From: Xanthobacteraceae bacterium
GTDB taxonomy: Bacteria; Pseudomonadota; Alphaproteobacteria; Rhizobiales; Xanthobacteraceae
Direction: 5' to 3'
Length of the DNA stretch: 64,000 nucleotides
NCBI GenBank assembly: GCA_035556495.1
Contig: DATMEW010000123.1
Location: forward strand, 11,137-75,136
Both the position numbers and the translations under genes were made by a program. The notes beneath the pieces were generated by a model, which was given only the letters and a program-made list of their open reading frames with translations, was not told where the DNA came from and ran no database searches. Positions 43,016-57,597 of this stretch are shown here, in pieces (the stretch's first letter is position 1; the number at the start of each line of letters is the position of its first letter).

Positions 43016-43090
43016 TGGTGCCGGATGAGGGGATTGAACCCCCGACCTTCGGTTTACAAAACCGCTGCTCTACCGCTGAGCTAATCCGGC
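43016..43090 (-). tRNA. tRNA-Thr (anticodon TGT), encoded CCA
   Basis: Hand-folded: GCCGGAT acceptor, GCTC/GAGC D-stem, anticodon loop TTTGTAA, T-arm GGGGG-TTCAATC-CCCTC. Confidence 0.9.
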
Positions 43091-43523: not shown

Positions 43524-43915
43524 CGCAGGAATTCGCGCAGCCAAATCTTGATATGGCCCAGGTTGGTGACGCCGAGCCATATGAGGTTGATGGCTCCAGT
43601 AACGACGGCGGTGACGAAGACCATTCCGAGTGCGACCTGTGCTCGGAAGCCCTTCATTTCATCGACATCGGGCTTCATGATCGCGACGCTGGCGGTGACA
43701 CTGGTGACGTCCCGCTTCATTTCCGCCAAGTTCGAGCGGACTTCCTCAAGGGCCTCGTACTGCTCTTTCCGGTTTTCGGAGGCGCGCCCCTGCTCCTTGA
43801 GGATGAGCTGGTTTTGCCCCTCGATCCGGCCGAGCGCCTGGGCGAGATCCAGCAACAGACCCGTGGGTTCGACATTCGGCGGCCGGTCGCCGTCATTGGT
43901 GCCGTTCACAGGCAT
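43520..43915 (-). CDS. Coiled-coil protein with C-terminal TM segment (DUF1515-like; possible spanin/lysis accessory)
   Basis: Heptad-like region LILKEQGRASENRKEQYEALEEVRSNLAEMKRDV plus TM segment VALGMVFVTAVVTGAINLIWLGV; last gene of the lysis cassette. Confidence 0.45.
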   Translation of the reverse strand: MPVNGTNDGDRPPNVEPTGLLLDLAQALGRIEGQNQLILKEQGRASENRKEQYEALEEVRSNLAEMKRDVTSVTASVAIMKPDVDEMKGFRAQVALGMVFVTAVVTGAINLIWLGVTNLGHIKIWLREFLR

Positions 43916-44121
43916 CCCCGGCGCTCAAGAAATCGGTTGTGCTCCATGATCTGGCGAATGGTTTCTGGCGTGTCGGAACGGGACGGGCGGATTGGTTCCT
44001 GACCCGCGCACACCGCGCTAGTCCCTGAACCACTTGTCGTCTGACACCCTGCCAGCAGCAACATCCCGACGAGCATCATCGCGGGCCTTCCGGCCCTTGT
44101 CAGCGGACTTGGTCTCAGCAT
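43906..44121 (-). CDS. Small lipoprotein, outer-membrane spanin (Rz1-like) candidate
   Basis: Lipobox MLLLAGC. The gene overlaps the 3' end of the upstream gene in another frame. Confidence 0.5.
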   Translation of the reverse strand: MLRPSPLTRAGRPAMMLVGMLLLAGCQTTSGSGTSAVCAGQEPIRPSRSDTPETIRQIMEHNRFLERRGCL

Positions 44122-44311
44122 CGTCCCATTTCCTTTGCGTCCGGCGGGAGCCGTCCCGGTTGCCCTTGTGATAGACGGAGAGGGCCGCAGCGGCCGTCAG
44201 GGCGGCGGCTAGGGCGTATTTGCGGAGGGGCGGGAAGAACCACGCCAGCGCGCCAGCAGACGCCATCACGGCCCCGCCAAGGCCGTACCAGGTCCAGATG
44301 GAATCCCACAT
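44018..44311 (-). CDS. Holin-like protein (two TM segments, highly charged C-terminus)
   Basis: GLGGAVMASAGALAWFF and YALAAALTAAAALSVY hydrophobic segments, then a K/R/D-rich tail; directly downstream of the endolysin gene. Confidence 0.5.
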   Translation of the reverse strand: MWDSIWTWYGLGGAVMASAGALAWFFPPLRKYALAAALTAAAALSVYHKGNRDGSRRTQRKWDDAETKSADKGRKARDDARRDVAAGRVSDDKWFRD

Positions 44312-44314
44312 GGC

Positions 44315-45196
44315 TCAAGCCATATCGGGAATGGCGACAGGCGCCGGCTGTCGGTCCTGCCGGGCTTGCCACCAGCGACGGCCGGCCTTGACCAGCAGGT
44401 AGCCGCCATAGCCGAGGCCAGCCACAATGGCCGCGCCGAGGGCGATCCGGACAGCCCAATCGGGAAGGGCGGCAAGGTCGGACAGGCGGGCGGTCACGGT
44501 GTCGAAATTGGCCCACGCCAGACTGCCGAGACCGGACAGGCTCGTGCCGGACTTGGCTTCCTCGACGGCAACCTTGCCTTCGGGGGTCTTGCTGATCTTG
44601 GTATCGGCTTCCGTCGCCTTGGCAGCGCCCGCGCCGGCCGTGGCCTTGCCGGGGACGGACCCCATGGCCCACGCCTGTCCGCCAGTCCGGACCTCCCGGA
44701 CCCGATTGGTCCAGCCCTTGCCAAACGTGCCCCACGTCTTGAGGTCACGGAGGAAGGCCATCCGCTGGTCGCAAATACTCCCGATCAGCGCGTCATGGTC
44801 CGGGTGCTGGTCTACGCCATCGAGAGTCTTCGCCCCAACCAGCCCGTCAATCAGCCCGGAATATAGGCCATCTGCCCGGAGCGCCCGTTGCAGCCAGCGG
44901 ACGGACTGCGCCACGCCCGAGTTCACCGCCCCGTCGAACACGACATAATCGACGCCGAGCGGCAGCCGGTCCCCGGCGATCTTGTCCCAATATTGAGTCT
45001 TGTAGATCGCGTCCCGCTCCTGAGAGGTGAGGTTCCGGACGGACTGTGTGGGCAGACCACGCTGCCGGCGATAGGCGTCATAGGTGGTCTGAATGATGCC
45101 TTGATTGGTCGCCCCGCCGGGGTCTTTCGGATGGTGAACGAAGCCGCCTTCATGCCGGAGCACGCGCGAGAGCGCGGCAGAATAGTTCTGCTTCAT
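44315..45196 (-). CDS. Endolysin: glycoside hydrolase family 108 + PG_binding_3 domain with an extra C-terminal TM segment
   Basis: RHEGGFVHHPKDPGGATNQGI (GH108), YWDKIAGDRLPLGVDYVVFDGAVNSG (PG-binding), C-terminal IALGAAIVAGLGYGGYLLV. Confidence 0.88.
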   Translation of the reverse strand: MKQNYSAALSRVLRHEGGFVHHPKDPGGATNQGIIQTTYDAYRRQRGLPTQSVRNLTSQERDAIYKTQYWDKIAGDRLPLGVDYVVFDGAVNSGVAQSVRWLQRALRADGLYSGLIDGLVGAKTLDGVDQHPDHDALIGSICDQRMAFLRDLKTWGTFGKGWTNRVREVRTGGQAWAMGSVPGKATAGAGAAKATEADTKISKTPEGKVAVEEAKSGTSLSGLGSLAWANFDTVTARLSDLAALPDWAVRIALGAAIVAGLGYGGYLLVKAGRRWWQARQDRQPAPVAIPDMA

Positions 45197-45264: not shown

Positions 45265-46038
45265 TCAGGCCAGAATTTCTTGGCTAATCTTCCACGCCAT
45301 TCTCTCGTAAAAAGGCATATCGTAATGCAATGACGCCTCACCCCATGGGGCGTCAGGACTCGTCCACGTCACATCACCAAAGGCACAGATGTGCGAACTG
45401 CTAATCTCGGACTTATAACGCTTGAGCGCTCTCTGGTAATGATCCCTGTAGAAGCCCGAGTATACTTCGGCGCCCAAATACGCCTTCGCATCCTGCATAG
45501 TCCCGCCACGTACCGAAATTGCAGTAGGCGGACAGTCCAAAAGGATAACCTTCGCATGAGGCTGATGGCTGGCGATGATGCCAGACAGACTCTTAAGCCC
45601 ACGGCCGAACGCCCTCGAATATAGCCTGTCACCAGGTTGGATCCGTTTAAACCGCTTCTCCAGAAGCCTTCGAAGGTCTGGCTTATCGTGGAGTTCCACG
45701 CCAATCGAGAGAAGCTTCCCATCCAACATAATCAGGGACGGATAACTGTCTCGCCAGAAGTCGATGATTATAGCATCGAAGTCAGTGTTAGTTAATGTTT
45801 GCGTGAAGCGCCCAGATGCCTCGTATCTCATGCGCTTCAACACGTCGTCGTGTTCTTCGACGGCGCTATAAGCATCTCCGAGCGCGGAAGCAAGATCAGA
45901 CCCATTAAACTGGGAAAGGGGGTCAAACATCGCGGTAGGAATGCGATAAATTTGTCCTGCCTGGGTGGCTCCAGGTAACTTGAGCGTCACATGTTGAGCA
46001 TTGCACCCGCCGATGAATAACGCTGTCTTCAACATCAT
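45265..46038 (-). CDS. Hypothetical protein, low-G+C moron (alpha/beta fold suspected, DUF6270/SGNH-like at best)
   Basis: Clean 257-aa ORF of non-shadow composition, bracketed by an AT-rich leader and a terminator; motifs LFIGGCN, AIIIDFWRD, KVILLDCPP. Confidence 0.6.
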   Translation of the reverse strand: MMLKTALFIGGCNAQHVTLKLPGATQAGQIYRIPTAMFDPLSQFNGSDLASALGDAYSAVEEHDDVLKRMRYEASGRFTQTLTNTDFDAIIIDFWRDSYPSLIMLDGKLLSIGVELHDKPDLRRLLEKRFKRIQPGDRLYSRAFGRGLKSLSGIIASHQPHAKVILLDCPPTAISVRGGTMQDAKAYLGAEVYSGFYRDHYQRALKRYKSEISSSHICAFGDVTWTSPDAPWGEASLHYDMPFYERMAWKISQEILA

Positions 46039-46313
46039 CCCCCCCCCCGCGCAACGTTAGACGAAGCTCATCAACTATCGCAATGGAAAATTGTCGCATA
46101 TAACTATTAATTATACTGTATAACTACGCTTCCCTATCGATCCGCTTTAAACACACGTCTTGCTAACTCTTTTTATTCATTCCTATCAGGTCGTCCTGCC
46201 CATGTTTGCGCGCATCATATGCTGATAGCTCAGTATTGGCATCCGGGGACAAAGGGTCAGTATCTTTCTTGGAGAATGTCGCCGGCTTCTGGACCCGAAC
46301 GAAGACCATTTTA

Positions 46314-48239
46314 TCACTCGATTTCATAGGTTATGTCCATATACGCAAGTTGGTCGTCACCACTAAACGGATACGACGTATCATCGCGGGTGATGTACGC
46401 TTTGTTATCGCCACCAACAAGCAGCGCACGCAAAGAAGCGCCAGTTACTCTTACCTCAATGCCGTTTCGAGAGAAGGTGCCGTTTTTTGGGGTGAACGGA
46501 AGCGTTGCCATCAGATAACCGGAGGCTGTTCCGACTGACGCGCTGTCGATCTCGAGATGAACAGTGACCCATTTGCCGATTTTCTTATATCGCGCAGCGG
46601 CGACGGTCAGGGTGCCCGGCGTGCCGCTCCCGACACTCAACGTTGGAGTCCACGTCCTCGTCCACTCAGAGGACTCGAAAACGGTGAGCTGTCCTCCGGA
46701 ACTGTCGAGGATGTCGGCCGTACAGCCTTCAAATTCTGGGTCGAATACTTGGATGTCCTGTGCACCGCTTGCGACGCGTAGACCGAATTCAGGGGCGACG
46801 CCCGGCCCTTTGCGAACTCGCAAAGTCATAATCCGTGCATGGGAATAATCCTCAAGGACATCCACGCCGCCAGAGCCGTCGTTGTTCTCGTTGAGGCTTA
46901 TCGCGTCTCGGAGGTTCACTTCCCACGAGCCGGCGCCAGCATTGCTCCGGAGAATAACAGGCCGTTCCGTTCCGTTCGTCCCGTCGATATTAAGTTTTGA
47001 TAGGGCGATCTGGTCGATGCCTAGATCCGCTCCGATCTTGCAGTCGTTTACAAACCGGAAGTCGAAGGACAATGCGCCAGCGACACCGTTGTAATCCTCC
47101 GGCTGCGTGATCTTCAGCCCGGTTCCGAGAGGACAGCTGTCTAGATACACGCCGTCCATATAGATGGCCGTGATCTGGTGGTCCTGGGCTTCACCATCGA
47201 ACGCTTTAGCAGGATCAATCAGAATGATTTCATCTCGGCACATGCCGAAATGGCCGCCTGATTCCCACCAAATGCCGTCAGCGCATGTGATCCAGATATT
47301 CTTGGATAAACGCCCGTTGATCTGTTGCCCTCGCCACTCGGAAAGACCGAAGTGGATTTCGGAGGGGATAATCCCTCCGAGAGTACCGCCTGCCCGGAAT
47401 GGAGATTTCTCGATTTTCAGTAAGTACGAGTTGGCGCGGTATTCAGCGAACGCCGCGTCCGAAGCCATCTGGAACTGTGTGAACTCGTGACCGCCACCGC
47501 CGATAAGCGTCATACAGGCGTAATGGGCGTACAGGCCGACGTTATGAACTTTGGCAGCGAAGACATCATGGAGAACGAGTGCGCGCCCTGTGTTTGTGTC
47601 CGCTGTCGCGTAGATGTTGAAATCGCGGAGGTCGATTGCACCAACGTTGTGCTGGTTTTCCTCCGGTGAGAAATTCAGAAAGTCTCCTTGATCGTTGCTG
47701 TCGATCAAGAAATATGTCGTACCCGTTCCTCTGATCTGAGTGTGGTCTTGACGAAACACAGGAAATGCTCCGGGGGACGCAACCCGAATACTCCCCGGCA
47801 AATCAAATACCAGCGACTTTTTGCCAAGCAGAGCTGCCTTAGCGCACATATTCGAGATGCGCAGCTGATTATCAGTGATACTGTCGTCAACAACGTCATA
47901 GTCGCTGGCGCGAATTTCGTCGGACCATCGCTGTTCATTTGAGCGGCGGACTGTCCCATCATTAACCGCGAACTTTCCCAGCGCGGCCACATCCTTGAGC
48001 GCAATGGAAGTGCTCTCGTCGCTCGGCGTGACGTTGGCGGCGCCGACCACGTTATCAACCGTGTCCCACGCAGTTTCGTAGTCAGAACTTGTCTGCTTGC
48101 GGAGAATGGTGCCCGCTGCGCCGCCAGTGGCGACGCCAGCGCCTGTAGCGCCGGCCGGGCCATCAGCGCCGACTGGCCCACGCAGGAAATAGGACAAGCT
48201 GATAGCTGCCCCGCCCGAGGGCTGGCTGAATCGAAGCAT
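46314..48239 (-). CDS. Tailspike / receptor-binding depolymerase (pectate-lyase-type beta-helix)
   Basis: N-terminal collagen-like GPVGADGPAGATGAG. IRASDYDVVDDSITDNQLRISNMCAKAALLGKKSLVFDLPGS resembles the Pectate_lyase_3 N-terminus. Long beta-rich body. Confidence 0.7.
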   Translation of the reverse strand: MLRFSQPSGGAAISLSYFLRGPVGADGPAGATGAGVATGGAAGTILRKQTSSDYETAWDTVDNVVGAANVTPSDESTSIALKDVAALGKFAVNDGTVRRSNEQRWSDEIRASDYDVVDDSITDNQLRISNMCAKAALLGKKSLVFDLPGSIRVASPGAFPVFRQDHTQIRGTGTTYFLIDSNDQGDFLNFSPEENQHNVGAIDLRDFNIYATADTNTGRALVLHDVFAAKVHNVGLYAHYACMTLIGGGGHEFTQFQMASDAAFAEYRANSYLLKIEKSPFRAGGTLGGIIPSEIHFGLSEWRGQQINGRLSKNIWITCADGIWWESGGHFGMCRDEIILIDPAKAFDGEAQDHQITAIYMDGVYLDSCPLGTGLKITQPEDYNGVAGALSFDFRFVNDCKIGADLGIDQIALSKLNIDGTNGTERPVILRSNAGAGSWEVNLRDAISLNENNDGSGGVDVLEDYSHARIMTLRVRKGPGVAPEFGLRVASGAQDIQVFDPEFEGCTADILDSSGGQLTVFESSEWTRTWTPTLSVGSGTPGTLTVAAARYKKIGKWVTVHLEIDSASVGTASGYLMATLPFTPKNGTFSRNGIEVRVTGASLRALLVGGDNKAYITRDDTSYPFSGDDQLAYMDITYEIE

Positions 48240-48254
48240 GGCGATGTCTCTGAG

Positions 48255-48638
48255 TTAGAAGGCGACCGGGTTCGGCCGGAAGGTCACGACGCCGTGCGCC
48301 CACGCGGTCACGACGCCGTTTGCGTCCTCTGAGGCGAGGTCGCAGACGTAATCGCCGCGCAGGTTGATGGGCGGATGGACCATGATATTCAGGACGCAGG
48401 GATTGCCGTCGTCATCGTCACCGATGGACAGGCTTCCATCGTCCGTGGAGAGGGTGAGGCTGGGACTGGTTGCACCGTCGCAGGCGCGGAAGGTCATCCG
48501 GAAGGAAAGGCCGGTGAGGTCTGTCGGCACACCCGCCGCGCTGAAATAGATGGCGGAGGACCACGTTGCATTCGCGGCAATCTCGCCGCTGACTTCCATC
48601 AGCGCGCCGCCGCTGCCATATCCGGAGCGGGCCAGCAT
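48255..48638 (-). CDS. Hypothetical phage protein (beta-rich, tail-associated by position)
   Basis: Position between the tail fibre and tailspike genes; its start overlaps the stop of the upstream gene. Confidence 0.45.
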   Translation of the reverse strand: MLARSGYGSGGALMEVSGEIAANATWSSAIYFSAAGVPTDLTGLSFRMTFRACDGATSPSLTLSTDDGSLSIGDDDDGNPCVLNIMVHPPINLRGDYVCDLASEDANGVVTAWAHGVVTFRPNPVAF

Positions 48639-49600
48639 CAGCGGTCACCCCACACGGCCACGGTGATATAGTCCGTGCCGCTATCGGAGACGCCGGTTCC
48701 GGGATTCTGAATCTCGAACCTGACAGTCGTGGTGGTCAGCGCCTTGACATAGATCGTGCGGGTGGAGGTCGCGGAAGATTGATATCCGAGAACAACCGGG
48801 AACACTACCGTGGACATTGCGTTCGTCAGCGTCAGCGTCAGGTCGCCGGTCGAGTTCTTGACCAACCCAGAAAAGCCGAATTGCTGCTCGATGGTATAGG
48901 TGCCGTTGGACGTATTCTTGATAAGCGCCCAAGCCTTCGGGACGGCGGGGTGGTGGATCATCATCGCCGGGGGAACGAACGTGTCGTTATCGGTCGCGGC
49001 CTCCATGATGGCTTGATCGGCCTTCTGGCCGGTTGTCATCACGTCCTGCCATTCGCCGTCCTCGTAGCCCTCGAAGCGGTCATTGTCCGTGTTGTATCGG
49101 AGCTTGCCATCATCGGGACTGCCGGGGCGCTGCGCCGTGGTGCCAGCGCCGATCTGGGTGCCGGCCGGTCCGACCAGCAGGCCGGTGACGTTGGCGACCT
49201 CTCCGGCCAGCCCGTTGACCTCGCCCTGAGAGGGCACGCCCAGATTGGTCCGGGCCGTCCCGGCGTCCGTGGCCCCGGTGCCGCCGAATGGAATGCCGAG
49301 GGCGCCCGCACCGAGGGGAATGCCGGGGTCAATGTCGTCGCCGCTGTAATCCGCCAAGGACGAGCCGTCCGCCTTTTTGGCGACGATCTTGTAGGAGGCT
49401 GGCGCGATATATCGCTTGGGACAGACGCCGGAAGTAGAAATCACGATGGGGTTCGCGGCCGGAACTGCCAAATCAGCGTCTGAGAACAGCGCGAGCGGCG
49501 TTGTCGTCTGGGCCGCGTAGATGTAGAGTTTCGCCCCAGCGAGCGGCAAGCCGTTTTCATCAACGACCGGCAAGAGCGAATTACGGATGAGCACTGCCAT
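48638..49600 (-). CDS. Tail fibre protein
   Basis: N-terminal DENGLPLAGAKLYIYAAQTTTPLALFSD and IPFGGTGATDAGTARTNLGV motifs, common in phage fibres. Confidence 0.6.
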   Translation of the reverse strand: MAVLIRNSLLPVVDENGLPLAGAKLYIYAAQTTTPLALFSDADLAVPAANPIVISTSGVCPKRYIAPASYKIVAKKADGSSLADYSGDDIDPGIPLGAGALGIPFGGTGATDAGTARTNLGVPSQGEVNGLAGEVANVTGLLVGPAGTQIGAGTTAQRPGSPDDGKLRYNTDNDRFEGYEDGEWQDVMTTGQKADQAIMEAATDNDTFVPPAMMIHHPAVPKAWALIKNTSNGTYTIEQQFGFSGLVKNSTGDLTLTLTNAMSTVVFPVVLGYQSSATSTRTIYVKALTTTTVRFEIQNPGTGVSDSGTDYITVAVWGDR

Positions 49601-49612
49601 TACGGGCGGACC

Positions 49613-49644
49613 TCAAAAGAAAAGGCCGCCGGGCTGGCGACCTT
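49613..49644 (-). terminator. Intrinsic terminator (minus-strand sense) between the opposite-strand cassette and the tail-fibre gene
   Basis: Minus-strand AAGGTCGCC-AGCCC-GGCGGCCTT (one mismatch) followed by TTCTTTTG. Confidence 0.5.
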
Positions 49645-49705
49645 GTTAGTTCTCGACTCTAGGTTGTGAGGTGCGGTACCCTCCCTGAATTGTGGGAGGG
49701 GCGCG

Positions 49706-49999
49706 ATGTCGAAATATGTGGTGAGCTACGATCTGCGGCGCGAAGTCACTTCAACGGACTGGTATCGACTACACGAGACGTTAAAAACCGCCGTCGATTA
49801 CTGCTGGCCGCTCCAGTCAATCTGGATTATTGAAACACCGAGGACCCCAGCTGACATCATAGGGGTCCTTCGCTCGCAAGGCGTCATTGATGATAACGAC
49901 GGCATCATCGTTCTTGAGATCACGGGGAAAGGGGCTTTCCGGAGGGTCGCCAGCCAGGAAACGGCCAACTGGCTTGCCCAGCACCTTTACCAAGTCTGA
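49706..49999 (+). CDS. Stand-alone Cas2/VapD-like ferredoxin-fold small protein (hypothetical)
   Basis: GGGAGGG SD 5 nt upstream; by-eye alignment to the Cas2 consensus (YVVSYDL / PLQSIWIIE / DDNDGIIVLEI). Confidence 0.5.
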   Translation: MSKYVVSYDLRREVTSTDWYRLHETLKTAVDYCWPLQSIWIIETPRTPADIIGVLRSQGVIDDNDGIIVLEITGKGAFRRVASQETANWLAQHLYQV

Positions 50000-50052
50000 C
50001 ATTGACGTGTTCCTTATGAAAAGGCCGCCCAGAAGGACGGCCTTGGAAATAG

Positions 50053-50292
50053 TTGGAGAGCGAATTGACAACCTTTGAGATTGCCCTTTTGAGCATTTCG
50101 GCGGGTATTCTTATCGCGTTGTTAGTTGTGGTCTGGCTTCTTCTGGAAATCCATCACTTGATACGCGTCTGGATGCTGGATTGGGGGAAGAACCCTATGT
50201 ACGCCACCGGAAGCGAGTTGCGAGAGGTCAAGGATGAACTCTCTCGCGCTGCCGATTATATGAGAGTCTGGAAGCGCGAATCCTATGACTGA
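50053..50292 (+). CDS. Small single-pass membrane protein
   Basis: TM segment IALLSISAGILIALLVVVWLLL; TTG start (50053 or 50065). Confidence 0.45.
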   Translation: MESELTTFEIALLSISAGILIALLVVVWLLLEIHHLIRVWMLDWGKNPMYATGSELREVKDELSRAADYMRVWKRESYD

Positions 50293-50533
50293 CCTTCCTC
50301 GTTGGGCATTCTGGCTGGCGAATGCCAGCGTCATAGTTCTCATCTATCTTTTTGCCCAAGTGGCCAATGCCGCCGGATGGCAAATCAGCCTCGGATTCGG
50401 TGTCGGGGCTTTGTATATGTTCTGCCTTTTCCGTTGGCACTACGGCTGGTGGCCGGACTTCAATATGGACGGTGAGGACGACGCCAATTCCCAGCTTCCC
50501 CGCATAGACCCCGACCGCACCAACTATCGCTGA
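50285..50533 (+). CDS. Small two-TM membrane protein with acidic C-terminal tail
   Basis: WAFWLANASVIVLIYLFAQV and ISLGFGVGALYMFCLF hydrophobic segments; 8-nt overlap with the upstream ORF. Confidence 0.45.
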   Translation: MTDLPRWAFWLANASVIVLIYLFAQVANAAGWQISLGFGVGALYMFCLFRWHYGWWPDFNMDGEDDANSQLPRIDPDRTNYR

Positions 50534-52452
50534 TCATTCAGCAGATAGGAGTTCGCCCCGGCGATGGCGGCGGCGTCTCTAGTTGGTCGTGCAGCAACCG
50601 ACGCCTGCCGGCGGCCAACGGCCTCAATTGCGCGGGTAAGCTCCTTCATCGAATCCGGATTTGTCAGCAGTTCTCCGAGAACCTCGTCCGACCTGGACCG
50701 AAGAGTGTCGCGGATTTTCTTCGGAACCGTACCGATTGCCCGCCGCAGCAGGCTAACCGGCGGCGCTCCTGAGAACGCATCCATAATGAGGTCGCCAGCG
50801 ATCCCATCTGCGTCCTGACGTTCAGCGAGACGACGCGCTGTAGCAGAGTTGCCCAGTGCACGACTGGTCAATTCGGAAGAAGTCACCTCGAAGTTGAGTC
50901 TGTCCGCCCATTTGGCCGCTGCCGCCTCGTCCGGCATGATAGCGGCAACCTTCGACCTCATCTCGGGCGAGCGGAAATACTTGGTCATATCCCCCAGCTT
51001 CGCCGGGTCATTGCCCATCTTGCCAAGCATGGATGAGACAGCGCCTATGCGGAAAGCCTCCCGTTCAGCCTCAGGCATATGTTGCAAGGCCGCCCGAAGC
51101 TCCTCCGCACCTATCTTGGTATCGAAGATTCTGCGACCTTCCTCCACCGCGTCCAAATATCTGGATGGACCAGCCCAAGCATCACGAGCCTTCGCATAGG
51201 CCGGATTATGTTGATCGACGACGCCGATTAGGTCATCACGCATTGCGGAGAGGACGCGCGACTGATTAGCATTCCCCTTGCGTACGGCTTCTCCAACTAT
51301 ACCGTCTACCTGCTTCTTCCACGCGTCGATCTGGACCATGAGAGGCGCGTTTCTAACGTCTGCAATCCCATATTCGGTCTGTAGAGTTCTTCGGAAATCG
51401 GGGCTGCGTAGAACATGCTGGCCCCAGCCAGTGCTGGTGATCCGGTTCCAAACCTGCTCGATTTCTGGGGCGGTTCGAGCATTGAAGTTGAAGGCTTCAT
51501 CATAGAGGGGACGGGCAGCTTTCGCCCTTTCTGCCATAGTTTCCTGAATGGCCTGATGTGCAGTCTTGCTGGTGCCCGTCAGTTGGCGTAGGTCAGTGCT
51601 CAAGCGCGCCATCTGTCCCTGCTGACGACCTGTCAGGGCAGGGACCACAATAGTCCGGCCGGCGCCGGGCGTCTGAGCGACCCGTTCAACGAGCCCACGG
51701 ACGTTCTCGCCGCCAGCATCGGCCAGCGCCGCAACACCGGGGCGGGTCGCTTGCAAACCCTGCGTGCGAGCCATAAGAGCCGCCGGAGTGTCAGCGTCCC
51801 GCATAATTGCCCGACCGAGGTCGGCGGCTACATTTGCGCGCGGGGATATAGCTCCGCGAACAGCGTTTGCCGTCGCGCCGACACCTCGTGCTAGACCGGG
51901 GACGATTGCACCAACGGCTAATCCAGTGGCCCCGCCTTCTAACGCTCCTTGGGCGCGACCGCCGGGGTTCGCTTCGCCGGCTCCATAGGTTGCGCCGCCC
52001 CCAGCGCCACCCAGCATCATCCGGGCGACGGTAGGTAGCTTGGAGATGCCAGTTGCTGCGGCGGCTGCGCCAGTTGCAGGTAGAGCCGCCAGCGTTCCGG
52101 CAACAGCCCCGCCAATCTCGCCGGGCACCTTGATAGCTGTGGGGATCTGCTGGTCGCGGCGCTTTTCAGCGGCGAGGTTTTCCTCGTAGGTCCCGTTGCC
52201 GGCAAGCTCATTCGCCTTGGCTGATAGTTCATCAGCCCACCCGAATGTCATTCCAGAAGCCAGAGAACGAACCGCATCGTCTACATAGCCAAGAACGCCC
52301 TTGGACTGCTGCGGCACCGGGCGCCAGTCCTTGCCATCGAAGGCCAACATTTCCTTGGTCTGGGGATTAACGGCGGTTTTGGCCTTCTGCCAATTGCCGT
52401 CATCACTGAGAAACATCGTTTCCCCGGTTTGGTCATTGACTGCGATAGGCAT
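50524..52452 (-). CDS. Large internal virion/ejection protein (hypothetical)
   Basis: Position after the LT-domain protein, as for P22 gp20/gp16; Ala/Gly-rich hydrophobic stretch near the N-terminus. Confidence 0.5.
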   Translation of the reverse strand: MPIAVNDQTGETMFLSDDGNWQKAKTAVNPQTKEMLAFDGKDWRPVPQQSKGVLGYVDDAVRSLASGMTFGWADELSAKANELAGNGTYEENLAAEKRRDQQIPTAIKVPGEIGGAVAGTLAALPATGAAAAATGISKLPTVARMMLGGAGGGATYGAGEANPGGRAQGALEGGATGLAVGAIVPGLARGVGATANAVRGAISPRANVAADLGRAIMRDADTPAALMARTQGLQATRPGVAALADAGGENVRGLVERVAQTPGAGRTIVVPALTGRQQGQMARLSTDLRQLTGTSKTAHQAIQETMAERAKAARPLYDEAFNFNARTAPEIEQVWNRITSTGWGQHVLRSPDFRRTLQTEYGIADVRNAPLMVQIDAWKKQVDGIVGEAVRKGNANQSRVLSAMRDDLIGVVDQHNPAYAKARDAWAGPSRYLDAVEEGRRIFDTKIGAEELRAALQHMPEAEREAFRIGAVSSMLGKMGNDPAKLGDMTKYFRSPEMRSKVAAIMPDEAAAAKWADRLNFEVTSSELTSRALGNSATARRLAERQDADGIAGDLIMDAFSGAPPVSLLRRAIGTVPKKIRDTLRSRSDEVLGELLTNPDSMKELTRAIEAVGRRQASVAARPTRDAAAIAGANSYLLNDQR

Positions 52453-54047
52453 TATTCAATGATCCGAAAGCCAGCGGGCGGCGTCGGGATAGCAGGCGCC
52501 ACGGCCCCATCTTTCGGCGTGCCGGTCTCGCTTCCCAGCCAGTTGAAATCTCCCATGGACGGGCGCCGGCCTTTGTATCCCCGGAGCGTGCCGTGTTCCT
52601 CGAAATACTGCACCATGGCCTGCGTAGATTCTCCCATGGATTTGATGGTTTCGAAAAGACGGCGGACGCGCTTTACATTTTCTTCCGGCTTGAGGCGAGG
52701 ATTGAACGCGCGTGCGATCAATCGGTCGCCTTCCTTCTCGGTGAACTGCGCACCGAGAATTTCTCGCAGCGACCGCTGGACAACTTCCTCCACCCCTTCC
52801 CGGGCAATGGTCCCTTGCTCGTTGATGAACGGCTGGAGGAAATCGGGAAGCACACCAACAGCGCCGGTGACATTGCCGCCCTTTTCGAGAATGCCCAGCG
52901 CCTCGTTAAGCTGGGTAAGCTGCTTGGCCGAGTCCGCAAAGCCTGACGTGTTCCATCGGAGATAGGTGTCTGCGAAAGATTCGTCGATCTTCTTCTGGCC
53001 CGGCGACAAGCTTTCGCCGCCGACGGTTACATTCGTTGCGCCGGCCTTCCGCAGGTCTCGCTGGAAATCCATGTAAGTGCCGGGGAAACCCTGACCCTTC
53101 GCGAACAAATACTGCCTGACAGCTTCCGGTGTCTTGTTCTGCTCGAACTCCTGCGCCAGTAGCGTTTTAGCCACGTCTTTCATATTCGCGGGGAGGTTCG
53201 GATTTGCCATGGCTCCGATGAGCTGCTGGGCACGCAGCGACAGGTTCATTCCGCCGCTGGGCTGTCCGGAAGTCGGGCCATTCGCCTGAGGTGTGCCGGG
53301 AACGACATACTGCGCCGGACGCGCATTCGGGGGGATTGCTGCCGGGTCGGCGTCGTTCGCCGTGACGCCAGCAGCCTGAGCGAACCGCTGTCCATACTGC
53401 TGGACAGACGTGCCGAGCTGGTCCTTGGCGTTCGGGTTGTTCATCCCGCCTTCGCCGGCAAACCACGCGCGGGCAGCACCTTCCGGACCGTATTTTGCGG
53501 CATACTGGCCGAAGCGATGTTGAAACACCGCGTCCTGCGCCTGCGGATCAGCGAGGAATTCCTGCGGCGTCATCCGCCGACCAAGGGCAGCCTGCGTCCA
53601 CTCCGGAATATTGTTACCCATGACCTGATATTTGCCATAGGCCCGATCACCCGATTTTGTTACGAGCGGCCCCAAGGCATCATATCTGCCGCCGGACTCG
53701 ATCCCGGCGATGGCGTTGCCCCAAGATTGCGGGTCACTGGCCGACTGTCCGGAAGCTCCTGCGGAAGGTTGTCCGGTCAACGCGCTGAGAAAGTTCTGCC
53801 CCGCCTGCGCCTGTAGACCACGGGTGCGCTCTGCCTCCTGCAAGCCCATGACCTTGAGGCCAGCGTCCAGTTGACCGGCCCCCATCAACTGGTCGATTGC
53901 CGATCCGTAATTACGGGATTGCAACGAGCGACCAGCATCCTGCACCAGGCCCTCTTTGCGCCACGTATCCCCGCGACTATAGCCTTTGTCGAAAGCCGAC
54001 AGGGCGTCGAGGATCGACGGGACCGGGATGCTGAACTGGTTTGCCAT
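52452..54047 (-). CDS. Internal virion protein with lytic transglycosylase (SLT/lysozyme-like) domain
   Basis: AIAGIESGGRYDALGP...GKYQVMGNNIPEWT motif. Confidence 0.75.
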   Translation of the reverse strand: MANQFSIPVPSILDALSAFDKGYSRGDTWRKEGLVQDAGRSLQSRNYGSAIDQLMGAGQLDAGLKVMGLQEAERTRGLQAQAGQNFLSALTGQPSAGASGQSASDPQSWGNAIAGIESGGRYDALGPLVTKSGDRAYGKYQVMGNNIPEWTQAALGRRMTPQEFLADPQAQDAVFQHRFGQYAAKYGPEGAARAWFAGEGGMNNPNAKDQLGTSVQQYGQRFAQAAGVTANDADPAAIPPNARPAQYVVPGTPQANGPTSGQPSGGMNLSLRAQQLIGAMANPNLPANMKDVAKTLLAQEFEQNKTPEAVRQYLFAKGQGFPGTYMDFQRDLRKAGATNVTVGGESLSPGQKKIDESFADTYLRWNTSGFADSAKQLTQLNEALGILEKGGNVTGAVGVLPDFLQPFINEQGTIAREGVEEVVQRSLREILGAQFTEKEGDRLIARAFNPRLKPEENVKRVRRLFETIKSMGESTQAMVQYFEEHGTLRGYKGRRPSMGDFNWLGSETGTPKDGAVAPAIPTPPAGFRIIE

Positions 54048-54790
54048 CAGTAGATGCGTCCCATCAGAGCATTGGTGGCACCGCCGCCACCGAACCCCCC
54101 GGCGAGATTGCCGAGCGTGCTTCCAAGGCCACCGAGCCCGCCGACGCCACCCAGCGCCATACCGGCAAGGTTCATGCCGAGGCCGGCGATATTTCCAGCG
54201 CCAGCAGCCCGCGCACCGGCACCGGCCACCATGCCATCTGCAATCGTGCCTGCCGCGCCAAGCTCACCCTGATAGGCGGACTGGCGGGCGGAGAACTCGT
54301 TGTTGAGGCCCGTTCCCGTGGTTCCAACCTGCGCGCCCGTGGCCTGCAAGCCCTGACCACCAAGGCCGGACAGACGATCCAGCCATCCGCCGAATTTCTG
54401 CGTGGCGTAATCCTGCCCGAAGCGGTTGAGCGATTTCAGGGTGCCGCCGCTGTTCAGCAGGCCCTGCGCCGCTCGATTGCCCGTGATGGCGTTGCTGCCC
54501 TGCGTCAAACCTTCCATATAACCCGGCGAGGCGCGGAAGGTATCGAGGGCTGCCGCCTGCGCCTCCGGTCCTGCCAGGCCGAGCGCGGCCAGATAAGTCT
54601 GGTATCCCTGCTGGCCTCCCTGGACATATGGATCATAAGAACCAGCGAGCTGGGCGAACTGATCCCGGCTTTTCTCGCCGGCAAGGATCATCCGCTCGTT
54701 GGCTTCCTGCTGCTTGCGGTATTTGTCCGCAGCCGCGGCCTGCGCGGTCTTATCCGCGTCGGCACCGGAGAATACGTCAAAGAATCCCAT
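54047..54790 (-). CDS. Gly-rich ejection/internal protein (hypothetical)
   Basis: Position; C-terminal GGVGGLGGLGSTLGNLAGGFGGGG. Confidence 0.45.
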   Translation of the reverse strand: MGFFDVFSGADADKTAQAAAADKYRKQQEANERMILAGEKSRDQFAQLAGSYDPYVQGGQQGYQTYLAALGLAGPEAQAAALDTFRASPGYMEGLTQGSNAITGNRAAQGLLNSGGTLKSLNRFGQDYATQKFGGWLDRLSGLGGQGLQATGAQVGTTGTGLNNEFSARQSAYQGELGAAGTIADGMVAGAGARAAGAGNIAGLGMNLAGMALGGVGGLGGLGSTLGNLAGGFGGGGATNALMGRIY

Positions 54791-54792
54791 GG

Positions 54793-55104
54793 TCAGGTAT
54801 CCATACGGCCAGAGGTGCGAAGGGCGGCCAGAAGGGCGTTGTGGGCGGTGGAGATTTCCGCCTCGTCTGCGGTGTCCGGGTCAAGGTCCGGCTGGGCAGG
54901 CATCACCGGGAAGGTCTTGGCGGTCAGGTCAGAGGACAGCGTGTCGATGCGCTGATTGATCTCAGTCAGGCTGGTTTCGGTCCCGCCGCCCTGTGCCTTG
55001 AGCGCGTCTTGCAGCGCGTAGATCAGCCGTTCCAGCCCCTCCAGATAATCGGAGAGGTTCGGATCGATATCGACGCGCGGCAGCGTCGTCCTGCGTGTTG
55101 CCAT
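54793..55104 (-). CDS. Short coiled-coil protein, tail-needle (gp26-like) candidate
   Basis: Follows the gp10-like gene as gp26 does in P22; heptad-like LERLIYALQDALKAQ; C-terminal NALLAALRTSG resembles fibre/needle termini. Confidence 0.35.
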   Translation of the reverse strand: MATRRTTLPRVDIDPNLSDYLEGLERLIYALQDALKAQGGGTETSLTEINQRIDTLSSDLTAKTFPVMPAQPDLDPDTADEAEISTAHNALLAALRTSGRMDT

Positions 55105-56516
55105 TACAGTTTCAGCGGCCGGACAGCGGCGTCTGCGGCGACAAGGCCGCGCGCAACGGGGTCGGAGACGGACAGCTTCCAGACGCGGCCCTGAGGCCCA
55201 AAGCGGCCGAGGCGACGGCTGGTCACGCGGGTCCGATACTGGCCCCGCTTGCCGAGGGAGACGTGGCGGGTGATTGGGAAGGTCGATCCGCCATCATTGG
55301 ACCACGACAGCATGACCACCGGATCATATCCCTGATCGGTCGGTAGCAATCGGCCATAGCCCGTCGCCATATCGAAGTGCATCGCATCCACAATCCCGCC
55401 GTTCGGAAAGGCGTGCATCGTGGGCGACACCACGTCCCAGATCATCGGCGCGCCGGCCTCGGTCGTCGTGTCGGAATCGAAATAGTAGACATTCCCGCCG
55501 AAGCGGTCGGTCACGATGGTCTTGCCCCACGCCTGGAAGGCGTTGGAGTGTCGCCAGCGGGTCTTTTGATGGCTCCTGCGCCGGTGCCAGACGCCCGTTG
55601 CGGCATCGTAGGAATAGGACCAGTTCGAGCCCGTGATGTTGTAGAAGCTATGGCCCTGACTGGCCCACGCCATGGCCTCGATGGCTTCCGGGTTCGGATC
55701 GGCCTCGATGGCGCGCTCCACCTCGTGATTGCTGATCCGTGTCGGGGTGTAGCCGTTCAGCCGATAGACAATGCCATCAGAGCCGACGAACAGGATTGAG
55801 CCGTCCGTCGAGACAACCGAGTGTTTCGCCAGCAGGCCCTTGGGAATGGTGCTGGACCCAGAACGCGGGCGGAATGGGTCCTCGGCGTCTCCGGTCGGTG
55901 CCCAAACCTCCGTGACCTTGGTCCCGAACAGGAACAGCTCGGACCGATCGACAAAGCCGCGCACCAGCCGATCTGGAAGTTGCTCCGCTGTATAGAACGA
56001 CAGGCCGTCGATGATCGTCGCTTCCGACTGCTCGGAATAGTACCAGCGGCCGGTGCTCCCGAAATAGAGGACGTATCCGACGAGATAATCCACGGAATTG
56101 GTATCGTACGGAAGATCCGGATCAACAATCCGCGTCACCGAGTCAGACGCAATGACGTAGCAGCCTACATCGGTCTGCACTACGATCTGCGGAATCGTCG
56201 CCTGATTGCGCGTGATCGTGACCTTCGACGCGCCGGGTATGGTCCCGATCCGCGTCATTGCCCCGTCAGATGTCAGTTTCCACGCGCTGGACGAATGCAC
56301 CAGATAGGCGCATTGCAGGTCGTCGCAGTAAATCGCGCCACGGCACGGCGTATCCGGACCGGAGGCGAAGGGCAGGGTGCCATCACAGGCCATCACGCCA
56401 AGCATCCCCTTGGCATCCTCGCCCAGCTTCTCGGCATACGCATTCACCAGCGAGGTCACGCCCATAAAGGCGTATTTGCCCCGGTTGGTCTGGAATGCGA
56501 TGGGAACGGCGGTCAT
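55104..56516 (-). CDS. Packaged-DNA stabilisation / tail hub protein (P22 gp10-like)
   Basis: 470 aa (P22 gp10 is about 470 aa); position; C-terminal pattern R..RLGRFGPQGRVWKLSV resembles the gp10 end; ATGA overlap defines the start at 56516. Confidence 0.55.
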   Translation of the reverse strand: MTAVPIAFQTNRGKYAFMGVTSLVNAYAEKLGEDAKGMLGVMACDGTLPFASGPDTPCRGAIYCDDLQCAYLVHSSSAWKLTSDGAMTRIGTIPGASKVTITRNQATIPQIVVQTDVGCYVIASDSVTRIVDPDLPYDTNSVDYLVGYVLYFGSTGRWYYSEQSEATIIDGLSFYTAEQLPDRLVRGFVDRSELFLFGTKVTEVWAPTGDAEDPFRPRSGSSTIPKGLLAKHSVVSTDGSILFVGSDGIVYRLNGYTPTRISNHEVERAIEADPNPEAIEAMAWASQGHSFYNITGSNWSYSYDAATGVWHRRRSHQKTRWRHSNAFQAWGKTIVTDRFGGNVYYFDSDTTTEAGAPMIWDVVSPTMHAFPNGGIVDAMHFDMATGYGRLLPTDQGYDPVVMLSWSNDGGSTFPITRHVSLGKRGQYRTRVTSRRLGRFGPQGRVWKLSVSDPVARGLVAADAAVRPLKL

Positions 56517-56875
56517 CGGCCCATCACGTCGTTGGTTCGCAGGGTCAAAGGACGAATGCCTCGCGGTGCCGATAGGCTGGACAGCGCCCGTTCCGCCTCT
56601 CGCATGGCAGCCATGGCCGTCGCCTGATCCATCAGACCGAAAGACGGCGCGATGGCCAGACCGATCCTGCGCGACAAGGCCGTGAGGTAGGCCGGAGGGA
56701 TCGCCATGGCCGACCCATTCCAAATCGGCATGTTGAGGGCCGCGAGCAGAGTAACCTCACCCTCGACCGTCTCCTTTGCCCAAGCCAGGTCATCCGGGCT
56801 CGGCATTTCCTCCGCTGCCACAAGGCCCAAGTCCTTGAGCATACGGGTTGCCAGATCGGTCAGTGAGTAGGCCAT
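56513..56875 (-). CDS. Head-to-tail adaptor candidate (gp4-like by position)
   Basis: Position only. Confidence 0.35.
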   Translation of the reverse strand: MAYSLTDLATRMLKDLGLVAAEEMPSPDDLAWAKETVEGEVTLLAALNMPIWNGSAMAIPPAYLTALSRRIGLAIAPSFGLMDQATAMAAMREAERALSSLSAPRGIRPLTLRTNDVMGR

Positions 56876-57597
56876 ATCTCATCCCGAAGCTTGGGGGAGA
56901 GGGCGATAACGTCCACGTCCTCGTGCGCGATTGCCGCGCTCAAGAGACCGCCGGATCGGTCGATCATGATGTCAGGGCACGACCGGAGCAGCGCCGCGAG
57001 GAAGTCCACCTGACACAACATGTCAGGGCTGGTCAGGAAGTCCTTTCCGCCGCATTCGACCCTCACGAGGTCGTCCAGCGGGCGGCAGTTGCCATAGGCG
57101 TGAGTCATTCGGTCGAAATTGCCTTCGCAGCCGTAGAACAGGACGCGCCTGTGACCGCGCTCGAATGCAATCATCGGGGCCGTGGTGGCGGTCGTCGGTC
57201 CGTTCAACAGCCCGTCGTCGCCTCCGACATGGACAGCCTCAACATCCGCGTTTTGGAGCGTAGCAAACACGTCGGGGTGGCAGGACGTGGACAGGATCGC
57301 CCGTTCGGCACCGCGGGCCATGCGGGCAATCGCGGGAAGCGGGTCCACACTCAGGAATGCCGCGTCAATGCCGTTCTCGCGGCACCAGCGCCATGCCCCA
57401 TTGATGGCCCATACCTCCGCTTCGATGGACCGCAGTTCCTCGACGTGGCCTAGAATAGACGGGCCACCGCCAACGATTGCAACGTCAGGAAGGCGGGCCT
57501 CCCCCAGTCGGGGAAAGCCCAGTTTGATGGCATGGACCCGGTGACGCGCCAGAATTTCCTCCGACGCGCCGCCGATAGCCTGCACCTGCATCTTCAT
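56860..57597 (-). CDS. DUF115 / MptE-Maf-like protein (putative glycosyl/nonulosonate transferase type)
   Basis: VAIVGGGPSILGHVEEL...EVWAINGAWRWCRENGIDAAFLSVDP ... GPTTATTAPMIAFERGHRRVLFYGCEG matches the DUF115 layout. Confidence 0.55.
   Translation of the reverse strand: MKMQVQAIGGASEEILARHRVHAIKLGFPRLGEARLPDVAIVGGGPSILGHVEELRSIEAEVWAINGAWRWCRENGIDAAFLSVDPLPAIARMARGAERAILSTSCHPDVFATLQNADVEAVHVGGDDGLLNGPTTATTAPMIAFERGHRRVLFYGCEGNFDRMTHAYGNCRPLDDLVRVECGGKDFLTSPDMLCQVDFLAALLRSCPDIMIDRSGGLLSAAIAHEDVDVIALSPKLRDEIWPTH

Follow-up and report, generated by a model that had tools for sequence, protein, structure and literature searches.

The stretch analysed here, referred to as the window, comprises 64,000 nt of contig DATMEW010000123.1 from a metagenome-assembled genome (MAG) of a Xanthobacteraceae bacterium, and it contains a prophage whose late genes all lie on the minus strand. 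Between the last gene at the ejection-protein position and a tail-fibre-like gene there is a short slot with three open reading frames (ORFs) on the plus strand, which we call g1 (49706-49999, 97 aa), g2 (50053-50292, 79 aa) and g3 (50285-50533, 82 aa). The last two overlap by 8 nt (ATGACTGA), and g3 overlaps the convergent 642-aa late gene (50524-52452) by 10 nt. An earlier note on this DNA had described these ORFs, including the 10-nt overlap and a coupled pair of small membrane proteins, as a three-gene cassette and a candidate module for exclusion, defence or toxicity. The ORFs are present as described, with a more likely g2 start at 50065, and g2 and g3 are indeed predicted to be membrane proteins with overlapping stop and start codons. 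Our reading of the slot, to which we give about an even chance, is that it comprises three independent modules, in which g3 (perhaps together with g2) would be a non-homologous analogue of the P22 exclusion protein SieA and g1 an independent accessory gene of nuclease type.

The prophage is P22-like, and judged by protein matches this kinship is firm for the head genes, among which P22_portal (3.9e-198), the P22 coat protein (3.2e-49) and a large terminase were matched. The counterpart of the gene at 55104-56723 in close relatives matches PF11134, the P22 gp10-type stabilisation family, and beyond this gene the late order continues through 103-, 247-, 531- and 642-aa genes to the three plus-strand ORFs, and past them through genes for a tail-fibre-like protein (320 aa), a 127-aa product, a tailspike-like protein (641 aa), a DUF6270 protein and a GH108 endolysin. 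The 642-aa gene (minus strand, phrog_5880 at 1e-109) is found downstream of the P22-like portal, coat and head-completion genes, is the last of the ejection-position genes and stands where P22 has gene 16. The 320-aa gene (48638-49600, minus strand) is the first late gene past the slot. It matches PHROG tail-fibre families (phrog_11355, 37013 and 10316, at 1e-4 to 2e-3) along with several structural families of unknown function, and a gene of the same length holds its position in L006 and L007, two of our comparison loci (L001-L114). On the P22 map, gene 16 is followed after 22 nt by sieA on the opposite strand and then by mnt, arc, ant and gene 9. This map, together with the P22-like module around the slot, supports the earlier equation of the slot with the sieA and immI interval of P22, which lies between genes 16 and 9.

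A gene pick based on third-position G+C content (GC3) accepts g1, g2 and g3 as the only credible plus-strand genes from about 43.5 to 64 kb, as had been proposed; two further plus-strand ORFs in this range are antisense or at the edge and are doubtful. The G+C content is 54% for g1, 50% for g2 and 56% for g3, whereas most neighbouring late genes that were checked have about 60-66%. The drop in composition noted earlier is therefore real, but it is shallower than the 47% that had been given, and it is shared by other late genes, as the tailspike-like gene has 55.7% G+C and the tailspike/DUF6270 region (45.2-47.8 kb) is as low as the slot genes.

Two hairpins divide the slot. T2 (49612-49644, minus strand) lies between g1 and the start of the tail-fibre-like gene and has a 9-bp G+C-rich stem (49622-49644) followed by UUUUCUUUU. 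The terminator scan found the same minus-strand stem (49644-49622, then TTCTTTTGAG), which folds at -15.3 kcal/mol, and the plus strand has no comparable hairpin. T1 (50021-50044, minus strand) has a 10-bp stem followed by UUUUCAU on the late strand. Its fold reaches -20.4 kcal/mol on the minus strand (z -3.98, with 0 of 200 shuffles as good) and -15.9 kcal/mol on the plus strand, where it has no U-run. Because the stronger fold and the UUUUCAU are both on the minus strand, T1 looks like a late-direction terminator. The earlier note had placed a minus-sense terminator before the tail-fibre gene and a hairpin between g1 and the g2-g3 pair, and both are real. T1 and T2 both look like terminators of late-direction transcription, with the slot at a transcription boundary, and T1 is the boundary between a g1 module and a g2-g3 module. 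An Rfam scan of 49-51 kb identified no family.

Comparison with relatives showed that the contents of the slot are exchanged piece by piece. The 642-aa protein of L006 is 92% identical to that of the window, and the two loci are 100% identical from the tail-fibre start through T2 (49590-49659, 70 nt). Where the window has g1, L006 has an unrelated 70-aa gene; T1 follows with about 30 nt identical but for one 1-nt gap, g2 is missing, and g3 starts 28 nt past T1. A near-identical copy of T1, reading TTTTTGATTC in the late direction, lies between the g3-like and tail-fibre genes of L035. A check of relatives for the trio found it together nowhere else. At least 12 loci, IS1595-family transposons among them, have g1 but neither g2 nor g3, at least 7 have a g3-type gene and no g1, and g2 is confined to this phage. 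Because of this distribution and the exchange seen in L006, the three genes do not form one module, and the cassette of the earlier note has to be abandoned. It is instead a set of three modules arranged around conserved late-direction terminators, namely A (g1 or its alternatives), B (g2, optional) and C (g3 type).

To see how widely the slot is occupied, we sampled 25 of the 79 viral contigs in which the 642-aa gene has a homologue. The slot holds a small membrane gene in convergent orientation in L034, L035, L036, L040, L041, L049 and L058, and several of these genes are related to g3 through the helical hairpin of the protein. Such a gene is absent from L037, L039 and nearly all of the sampled distant relatives, and in distant relatives without a slot gene the next late gene mostly follows 4-10 nt on. 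As many relatives keep the 642-aa homologue and lack the slot membrane gene, this gene is accessory rather than structural, in line with the earlier expectation that the slot would not encode standard components or assembly factors of the virion. We regard the stretch from the last ejection-position gene to the tail-fibre gene as an accessory-gene hot spot. A metagenome scan using the 642-aa alignment re-found L006 only. Against 50,697 phage records, the 642-aa protein has three distant matches of 25-27% identity, one in a Rhizobium phage and two in Microcystis phages, all annotated as hypothetical, and neither a megablast of the 12 kb around the slot nor tblastn of g1 and g3 returned anything from these records.

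The resident gene on the 642-aa side of the slot, g3 (50285-50533, plus strand), encodes a predicted 82-aa two-helix membrane hairpin with tryptophan-rich interfacial segments. The AlphaFold2 (AF2) model has helices at residues 6-30 and 32-55 with a predicted local distance difference test (pLDDT) score of 82-95, followed by a low-confidence tail that carries the conserved sequence FRWHYGWWPDFNMDGEDxxNxxLPRIDPxRTN. Twelve homologues were identified. Genes of this family were found at this position only, and at every locus examined they are convergent with, and overlap, a gene of the 642-aa type, with overlaps of 4-100 nt. Changes within the family are mostly at third positions and synonymous, and the codons of the tail also differ synonymously between loci, which indicates that conservation acts on the protein. 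Shorter relatives are encoded in L035, L036 and L058. The arginine-rich N-terminal extensions of some members suggest that both termini, and hence the tail, would be cytoplasmic. The partners of g3 vary between loci, from a 70-aa soluble protein (L006) to a 94-aa membrane protein (L008/L009) to none (L010). The homologue in L010 (L010:877-1200) has an extra C-terminal hydrophobic helix beyond the conserved tail. In L008 the neighbouring 641-aa gene, seen whole in L009 (L009:6294-8219), is reduced to a 70-aa remnant (L008:6294-6506) beside an intact g3 homologue, so g3 can outlive its neighbour.

In contrast to g3, which has a family, g2 is an orphan. The gene (plus strand) encodes a predicted one-helix membrane protein of 75 aa if it starts at TTG 50065 (50065-50292) and of 79 aa if it starts at TTG 50053. 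The former is favoured by an upstream GGAGAG box and agrees with the public annotation P0084. The C-terminal half is charged and coiled, and the stop codon overlaps the g3 start. A tblastn search of L001-L114 with g2 gave no match. Its GC1/2/3 values of 0.51/0.37/0.62 are as a coding sequence would show, and because of this pattern (GC3 above GC2), the ribosome-binding site and the overlap with g3, we regard g2 as coding. It may be a phage-specific partner or modulator of g3.

SieA is a small inner-membrane protein whose most conserved motif is on the cytoplasmic side. It is found in some P22-like phages only, always between genes 16 and 9, and it blocks DNA injection by an interaction in which gp16 and gp20 take part, the proteins to which escape mutations map (PMC10883804). 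If g3 is an analogue of SieA, it would be expressed from the prophage as a small inner-membrane helical hairpin, with its conserved acidic, tryptophan-rich tail probably facing the cytoplasm. There it would act like SieA, stopping the ejection-protein conduit through which related incoming phages deliver their DNA. In the lytic phase, late transcripts entering the slot from the 642-aa gene would be antisense to g3 and extend to T1, which could silence g3. A more specific version of the proposal, which we consider possible but on balance improbable, assigns the slot two activities that have not been described before. In it, g3 would represent a new injection-blocking class unrelated to SieA, contacting the conduit at its inner-membrane end through the conserved cytoplasmic tail (WHYGWWPDFNMDGED...LPRIDP) and silenced by convergent late transcription. 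In the same version g1 would belong to a stand-alone Cas2 lineage working with or for mobile elements, and IS1595-family transposons, which would insert at the T-runs of terminators, would carry it as their constant passenger beside the terminal repeat.

Several observations weigh against a SieA-like role for g3 and a nuclease-type role for g1. Comparison of g3 with SieA gave a BLASTP E value of 25 and an hhalign probability of 0.2%, and g3 has no match in PADLOC, PHROGs or Pfam. SieA is 162-164 aa long with 3-4 helices, whereas g3, with 82 aa and 2 helices by AF2 model and hydropathy, is half that size. The proteins that it would act on are also not recognisable as P22 homologues, as BLASTP found no significant similarity of the 531-aa and 642-aa proteins to P22 gp20 and gp16. 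A sigma-70 scan of 49000-51000 detected no promoter, with a consensus that may not fit Alphaproteobacteria. The only database match of g2 is an identical 75-aa annotation of the same contig, with no homologue. For g1, the TM-scores to Cas2 structures are moderate (0.45-0.67), and g1 itself does not match Pfam Cas2 (PF09827) at E<=0.1. Finally, small membrane proteins in the slot could equally be abortive-infection effectors or toxins.

Because similarity to gp20 and gp16 is not significant, the label of ejection protein for the 531-aa and 642-aa proteins reflects position and size only; the earlier placement of the slot between ejection and tail-fibre genes holds for position, and its ejection label in this restricted sense. 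Searches of PDB sequences with both proteins were empty. The statement that none of the slot products resembles SieA, Mnt, Arc or Ant agrees with our searches of Pfam, PHROGs, NCBIfam and PADLOC and with the BLASTP and hhalign comparisons to SieA: g1, g2 and g3 have no Pfam, PHROG or NCBIfam match to the Arc/Mnt ribbon-helix-helix or the Ant antirepressor, and nothing meaningful was found for them in PADLOC or NCBIfam. The hhalign comparison did pair YGWWPD of g3 with FGRYPG, at the start of the SieA FxRYP motif, but at a probability of 0.2% we do not treat this as evidence.

We think it unlikely that g3, alone or together with g2, acts as a membrane effector of the abortive-infection or toxin type, for example as a prophage-encoded pore or depolarising peptide that infection triggers, instead of blocking DNA injection. 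Small hydrophobic hairpins with tryptophan-rich interfacial segments would suit such an effector, the stop-to-start overlap of g2 and g3 could pair it with an inhibitor, and both genes are oriented as prophage accessory genes and optional in relatives. However, the strict coupling to the last ejection-position gene, across barely or undetectably similar families, fits a function linked to ejection better. In addition, g3-type genes are often found without any partner that might restrain a toxin (L010, L035, L036, L040), and PADLOC gave no match.

A service of g2 and g3 to the lytic cycle, as holin and antiholin, as a lysis regulator or as a membrane factor for the ejection proteins, seems to us scarcely probable. 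Such a service would suit their small size, membrane helices and charged tails as well as the tight linkage of g3 with the 642-aa gene, and the GH108 endolysin (44315-45196, minus strand, in the late direction) is unusual in having a hydrophobic C-terminal segment. However, in the lysis region (43906-45196) the endolysin gene is adjoined by a gene for a 97-aa two-helix protein with a charged tail (44018-44311), which is holin-like or spanin-like, and the 3' end of this gene is overlapped by the 5' end of a 71-aa lipoprotein-like ORF (43906-44121). No classical holin lies upstream of the endolysin. As a separate two-helix holin-like gene is already in place, g2 and g3 are not needed as a holin. 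They are also on the strand opposite to all late genes, with late-direction terminators on both sides, and are absent from many relatives with a 642-aa homologue, including nearly all of the distant ones sampled. A holin/antiholin pair in particular would not be expected on the opposite strand and 5 kb away from the endolysin.

The remaining gene of the slot, g1 (49706-49999, plus strand; ribosome-binding site GGGAGGGG at 49694-49701), encodes a soluble protein of 97 aa. Its match among PHROGs is phrog_1090 (3e-13), a family with no assigned function, and it has 71 close homologues, all of about 97 aa, of which the organism-named ones are alphaproteobacterial. On the basis of its predicted fold and remote homologues, g1 is a stand-alone protein of the Cas2 superfamily, and the Cas2/VapD likeness that the earlier note had assigned to the soluble product is upheld. 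The AF2 model (pLDDT 89) has a b-a-b-b-a-b-a ferredoxin-like fold. Among Foldseek matches in PDB, Cas2 structures lead (6k2e, E 2e-3; Cas2 matches at 2e-3 to 5e-2 with probability <=1.00), and the best superposition is with BPSL1038 (7vxr, TM 0.67/0.74), which is a stand-alone Cas2/VapD-like DNase (PMC10491678). A Foldseek search of viral predicted structures gave weak, uncharacterised matches only. Sequence searches with g1 returned weak Cas2 matches at E 0.018 (S. pyogenes Cas2; phmmer, PDB) and E 0.5, and an hhalign comparison of the g1 family with the type I-E Cas2 of E. coli gave no match. With a family profile, 810 representatives were retrieved from 1.84 billion representative proteins, and 16 of 65 sampled remote relatives match Pfam CRISPR_Cas2 (PF09827), at best with 7.5e-7.

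Five residues of the g1 family vary little or not at all, namely Y8 and D9, which close beta-1, and S38, W40 and D65; of these, D9 is invariant. There is no cas1-like gene or CRISPR array near g1, whose neighbours are phage genes in the window and transposase, toxin-antitoxin or phage genes elsewhere. As g1 retains the beta-1 aspartate, we infer that it is probably a small nuclease or nucleic-acid-binding protein, which would benefit mobile elements through addiction, defence or counter-defence and would have been captured in the slot independently of g2 and g3. Outside the phage slot, homologues of g1 are very often followed by a convergent ORF of 45-73 aa rich in lysine and proline, with the motif F.EAARE.G.DEDE or L..TPP.PHK (L005:6327-6506; L013:5281-5433; L016:5297-5476; L017:5702-5839; L018:5278-5454; L021:5310-5462; L030:5113-5334). 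Such an ORF, which the window lacks, could belong to g1 as a conserved partner or form the end of an adjacent operon.

The g1 gene is found in the same slot of other prophages, namely L001 (a Mesorhizobium MAG), L025 and L031 (Paracoccus) and L029. In L001, L025 and L029 the ejection-position gene has no or marginal similarity to the 642-aa gene. The slot copies of the window, L001 and L029 share 80-83% identity (80% for L001), and the copy in L025 has 51%. In the window, L001, L025 and L029, g1 adjoins a small two-helix gene downstream on the same strand, which is a different gene each time, and the four are unrelated to one another. At least one further phage insertion point is used by the family, as shown by two locations beside packaging genes: in L030 a homologue lies upstream of the small terminase gene (L030:4830-5126), and in L016 one adjoins an IS1595-family transposase that abuts the portal gene (L016:1599-5294).

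A second setting for g1 is the IS1595-family element. Three such elements of 2.5-2.9 kb (L023:4891-7360, L014:4928-7780 and L021:4918-7428) are bounded by inverted repeats of about 26 nt (GGCGATTATATAC.TTGCAAACACGG) and share one layout, with a g1 homologue just within one end, the transposase (DDE_Tnp_IS1595) at the opposite end, and further cargo of toxin-antitoxin or defence-like type that varies between them. The g1 homologue is located 80-110 nt inside the left terminal repeat, and the other cargo consists of PIN and a 260-aa gene in L014, Panacea and a 119-aa gene in L021, and DUF3800 in L023. Perfect 8-bp target duplications at terminator T-runs were found in L023 (TTTGCTTT) and L014 (TTTATTTT), and we class L014 and L023 as IS1595-type elements in full and L021 in part. 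Each of the three elements directly follows a G+C-rich hairpin and its T-run, an arrangement suggestive of terminators as the insertion target. A transposase of this family also adjoins g1 in L016-L018. Taken together, g1 is an independently mobile accessory gene, or moron. The arrival of the window copy on an IS1595-family element was considered and rejected, as it has no transposase and a fuzzy search of 45-55 kb for terminal repeats (up to 7 mismatches in 26 nt) was negative, leaving no terminal-repeat remnants. Stand-alone homologues of Cas2 on mobile elements were described by Makarova et al., who proposed them as addiction toxins (PMC3506569). Insertion sequences that carry passengers have also been described (PMC3129680, citing Siguier et al. 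2009 on the IS1595 family).

This mobility raises the question of what g1 serves. One answer, which we judge distinctly unlikely, is mobile DNA itself rather than protection of the host, with g1 acting as an accessory to the IS1595 transposase in the manner of Cas1-Cas2, or as a Cas2 decoy that disturbs CRISPR adaptation, and with the phage copy as a by-product of the transposon. It is the one constant passenger, on the left-repeat side, in three IS1595-family elements of varying cargo, two of which have 8-bp duplications. The transposase is also adjacent in L016-L018, and Cas2-like genes have been likened before to the DNA-cleaving enzymes of mobile elements (PMC3506569). However, g1 is intact and has no transposase or repeat remnant in the window, L001, L025, L029 and L030, and its slot copies have kept the identities given above. 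This speaks for a benefit of g1 that is independent of the transposase.

Another answer, a type V toxin-antitoxin system like GhoS/GhoT, is in our view very unlikely. In such a system g1, as an RNase antitoxin with the Cas2 fold, would cleave the transcript of a small membrane toxin encoded downstream by g2 or g3. The arrangement is indeed similar, as in E. coli ghoS is followed by ghoT, which encodes a 57-aa membrane toxin, and in four phage slots (window, L001, L025, L029) g1, a small Cas2-like protein, is followed by a two-helix gene on the same strand. GhoS (2llz) is also among the Foldseek matches of g1 (TM 0.54), and hhalign of the g1 family with E. coli GhoS aligned 71 columns at 27% identity with an E value of 0.013, which applies to a single comparison. 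However, the hhalign probability is 3%, Pfam GhoS has no match, and the similarity is not significant database-wide. The genomic evidence also argues against such a pair, since g1 and the membrane genes are unlinked across genomes: g1 has no downstream membrane gene in at least 12 loci (L014, L021, L023, L016-L018, L003, L013 and L030 among them), the g3-type genes of L006, L008/L009, L010, L035, L036, L040 and L058 have no partner or an unrelated one, the four two-helix genes after g1 are mutually unrelated, and L006 has an unrelated gene in place of g1 beside the same g3. The toxin module that the earlier note had offered, here taken as a soluble RNase with a membrane toxin, requires precisely this linkage and is not supported.

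Some features of the prophage lie outside the slot. The host chromosome runs to a tRNA-Thr (TGT) gene at 43016-43090, which marks the junction between the host and the lysis end of the prophage and probably served for its integration. The interval 45265-46327, flanked by the tailspike-like and endolysin genes, contains the DUF6270 gene (257 aa, 5.4e-10) and a 54-aa ORF and has the lowest G+C content of the prophage (46-52%). It probably represents a further accessory acquisition, in this case on the late strand. A 245-aa late gene (56860-57597) between the coat and gp10-position genes has a sub-threshold MptE-like match (PF01973, 4.6e-5, 23.7 bits with a cut-off of 34.6), which is unexpected at a head-completion position. 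Lastly, a plus-strand ORF of 304 aa (54041-54955) lies opposite the glycine-rich late genes of 247 and 103 aa. It was preferred by the composition-based gene pick and is almost certainly an antisense artefact of high G+C.

Exclusion of the SieA type has been reported only from P22-like phages of Enterobacteriaceae, and its action on very divergent ejection proteins is left unresolved there (PMC10883804). If the proposed role is correct, g3 would represent a second, unrelated and much smaller family of membrane proteins at the sieA position, fixed there in P22-like prophages of Alphaproteobacteria, and it would be an independent system in which to study what such proteins recognise, with a short conserved tail that is easy to mutate. 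The g1 family is a sizeable stand-alone Cas2-like family that is absent from Pfam (810 representative clusters in a wider superfamily search), and its unusually clear tie to mobile elements, both phage slots and IS1595, bears on the long-standing idea that Cas2 originated as a toxin or accessory factor of mobile elements. If g1 does serve the elements that carry it, this would be a living partnership of a Cas2 with a DNA-cleaving enzyme outside CRISPR. What is new is that the sieA position is taken by a family with no relation to SieA, and that a family of Cas2-like proteins is associated with phage accessory slots and IS1595 elements, with predicted functions for both. Even if both proposed functions prove wrong, the slot clearly illustrates how genes are exchanged as modules between conserved hairpins.

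Compared with known systems, g3 shares with SieA the slot between the gene-16 position and the tail genes, the opposite strand and the convergent arrangement (a 22-nt gap in P22 and a 10-nt overlap for g3). Both are small integral membrane proteins, actual or predicted, that occur in only some relatives and have their best-conserved motif C-terminal to the last helix, at a predicted cytoplasmic location. On the other hand, g3 lacks the SieA motif FxRYPxEAxxFNK and has no homology to SieA types A-C, its host is alphaproteobacterial, and it is preceded by a coupled orphan gene, g2. Small proteins with one or two membrane helices that are encoded by phages or prophages and block DNA entry are a recognised group, and HK97 gp15 is a moron among tail genes. 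The SieA study cites superinfection exclusion by HK97 and the exclusion membrane proteins of Tuc2009 and TP-J34 as similar mechanisms (PMC10883804). These proteins differ from g3 in acting against long-tailed phages.

For g1, the comparison is with Cas2, VapD and BPSL1038, with which it shares a predicted b-a-b-b-a-b-a fold of about 90-100 aa, the conserved Y-D at the end of beta-1 and an S/T in beta-2. Like BPSL1038, it stands alone in a genome region without CRISPR. Unlike Cas2 and VapD, g1 has no cas1 or CRISPR nearby and no VapX-like partner, as no conserved co-directional gene was found beside it across about 25 loci, and it is carried by phages and IS1595-family elements. The transporter insertion sequences of the IS1595 family resemble those of our loci in which g1 homologues are enclosed by inverted repeats and 8-bp duplications together with DDE_Tnp_IS1595, whereas g1 of the window has neither transposase nor repeats and behaves as a phage accessory gene. 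The closest parallel for the slot as a whole is the lambdoid morons, which share with it opposite or independent transcription, lower G+C content, flanking hairpins, gene replacement, and presence or absence among relatives. The slot belongs to this category, and there is no difference in kind between them.

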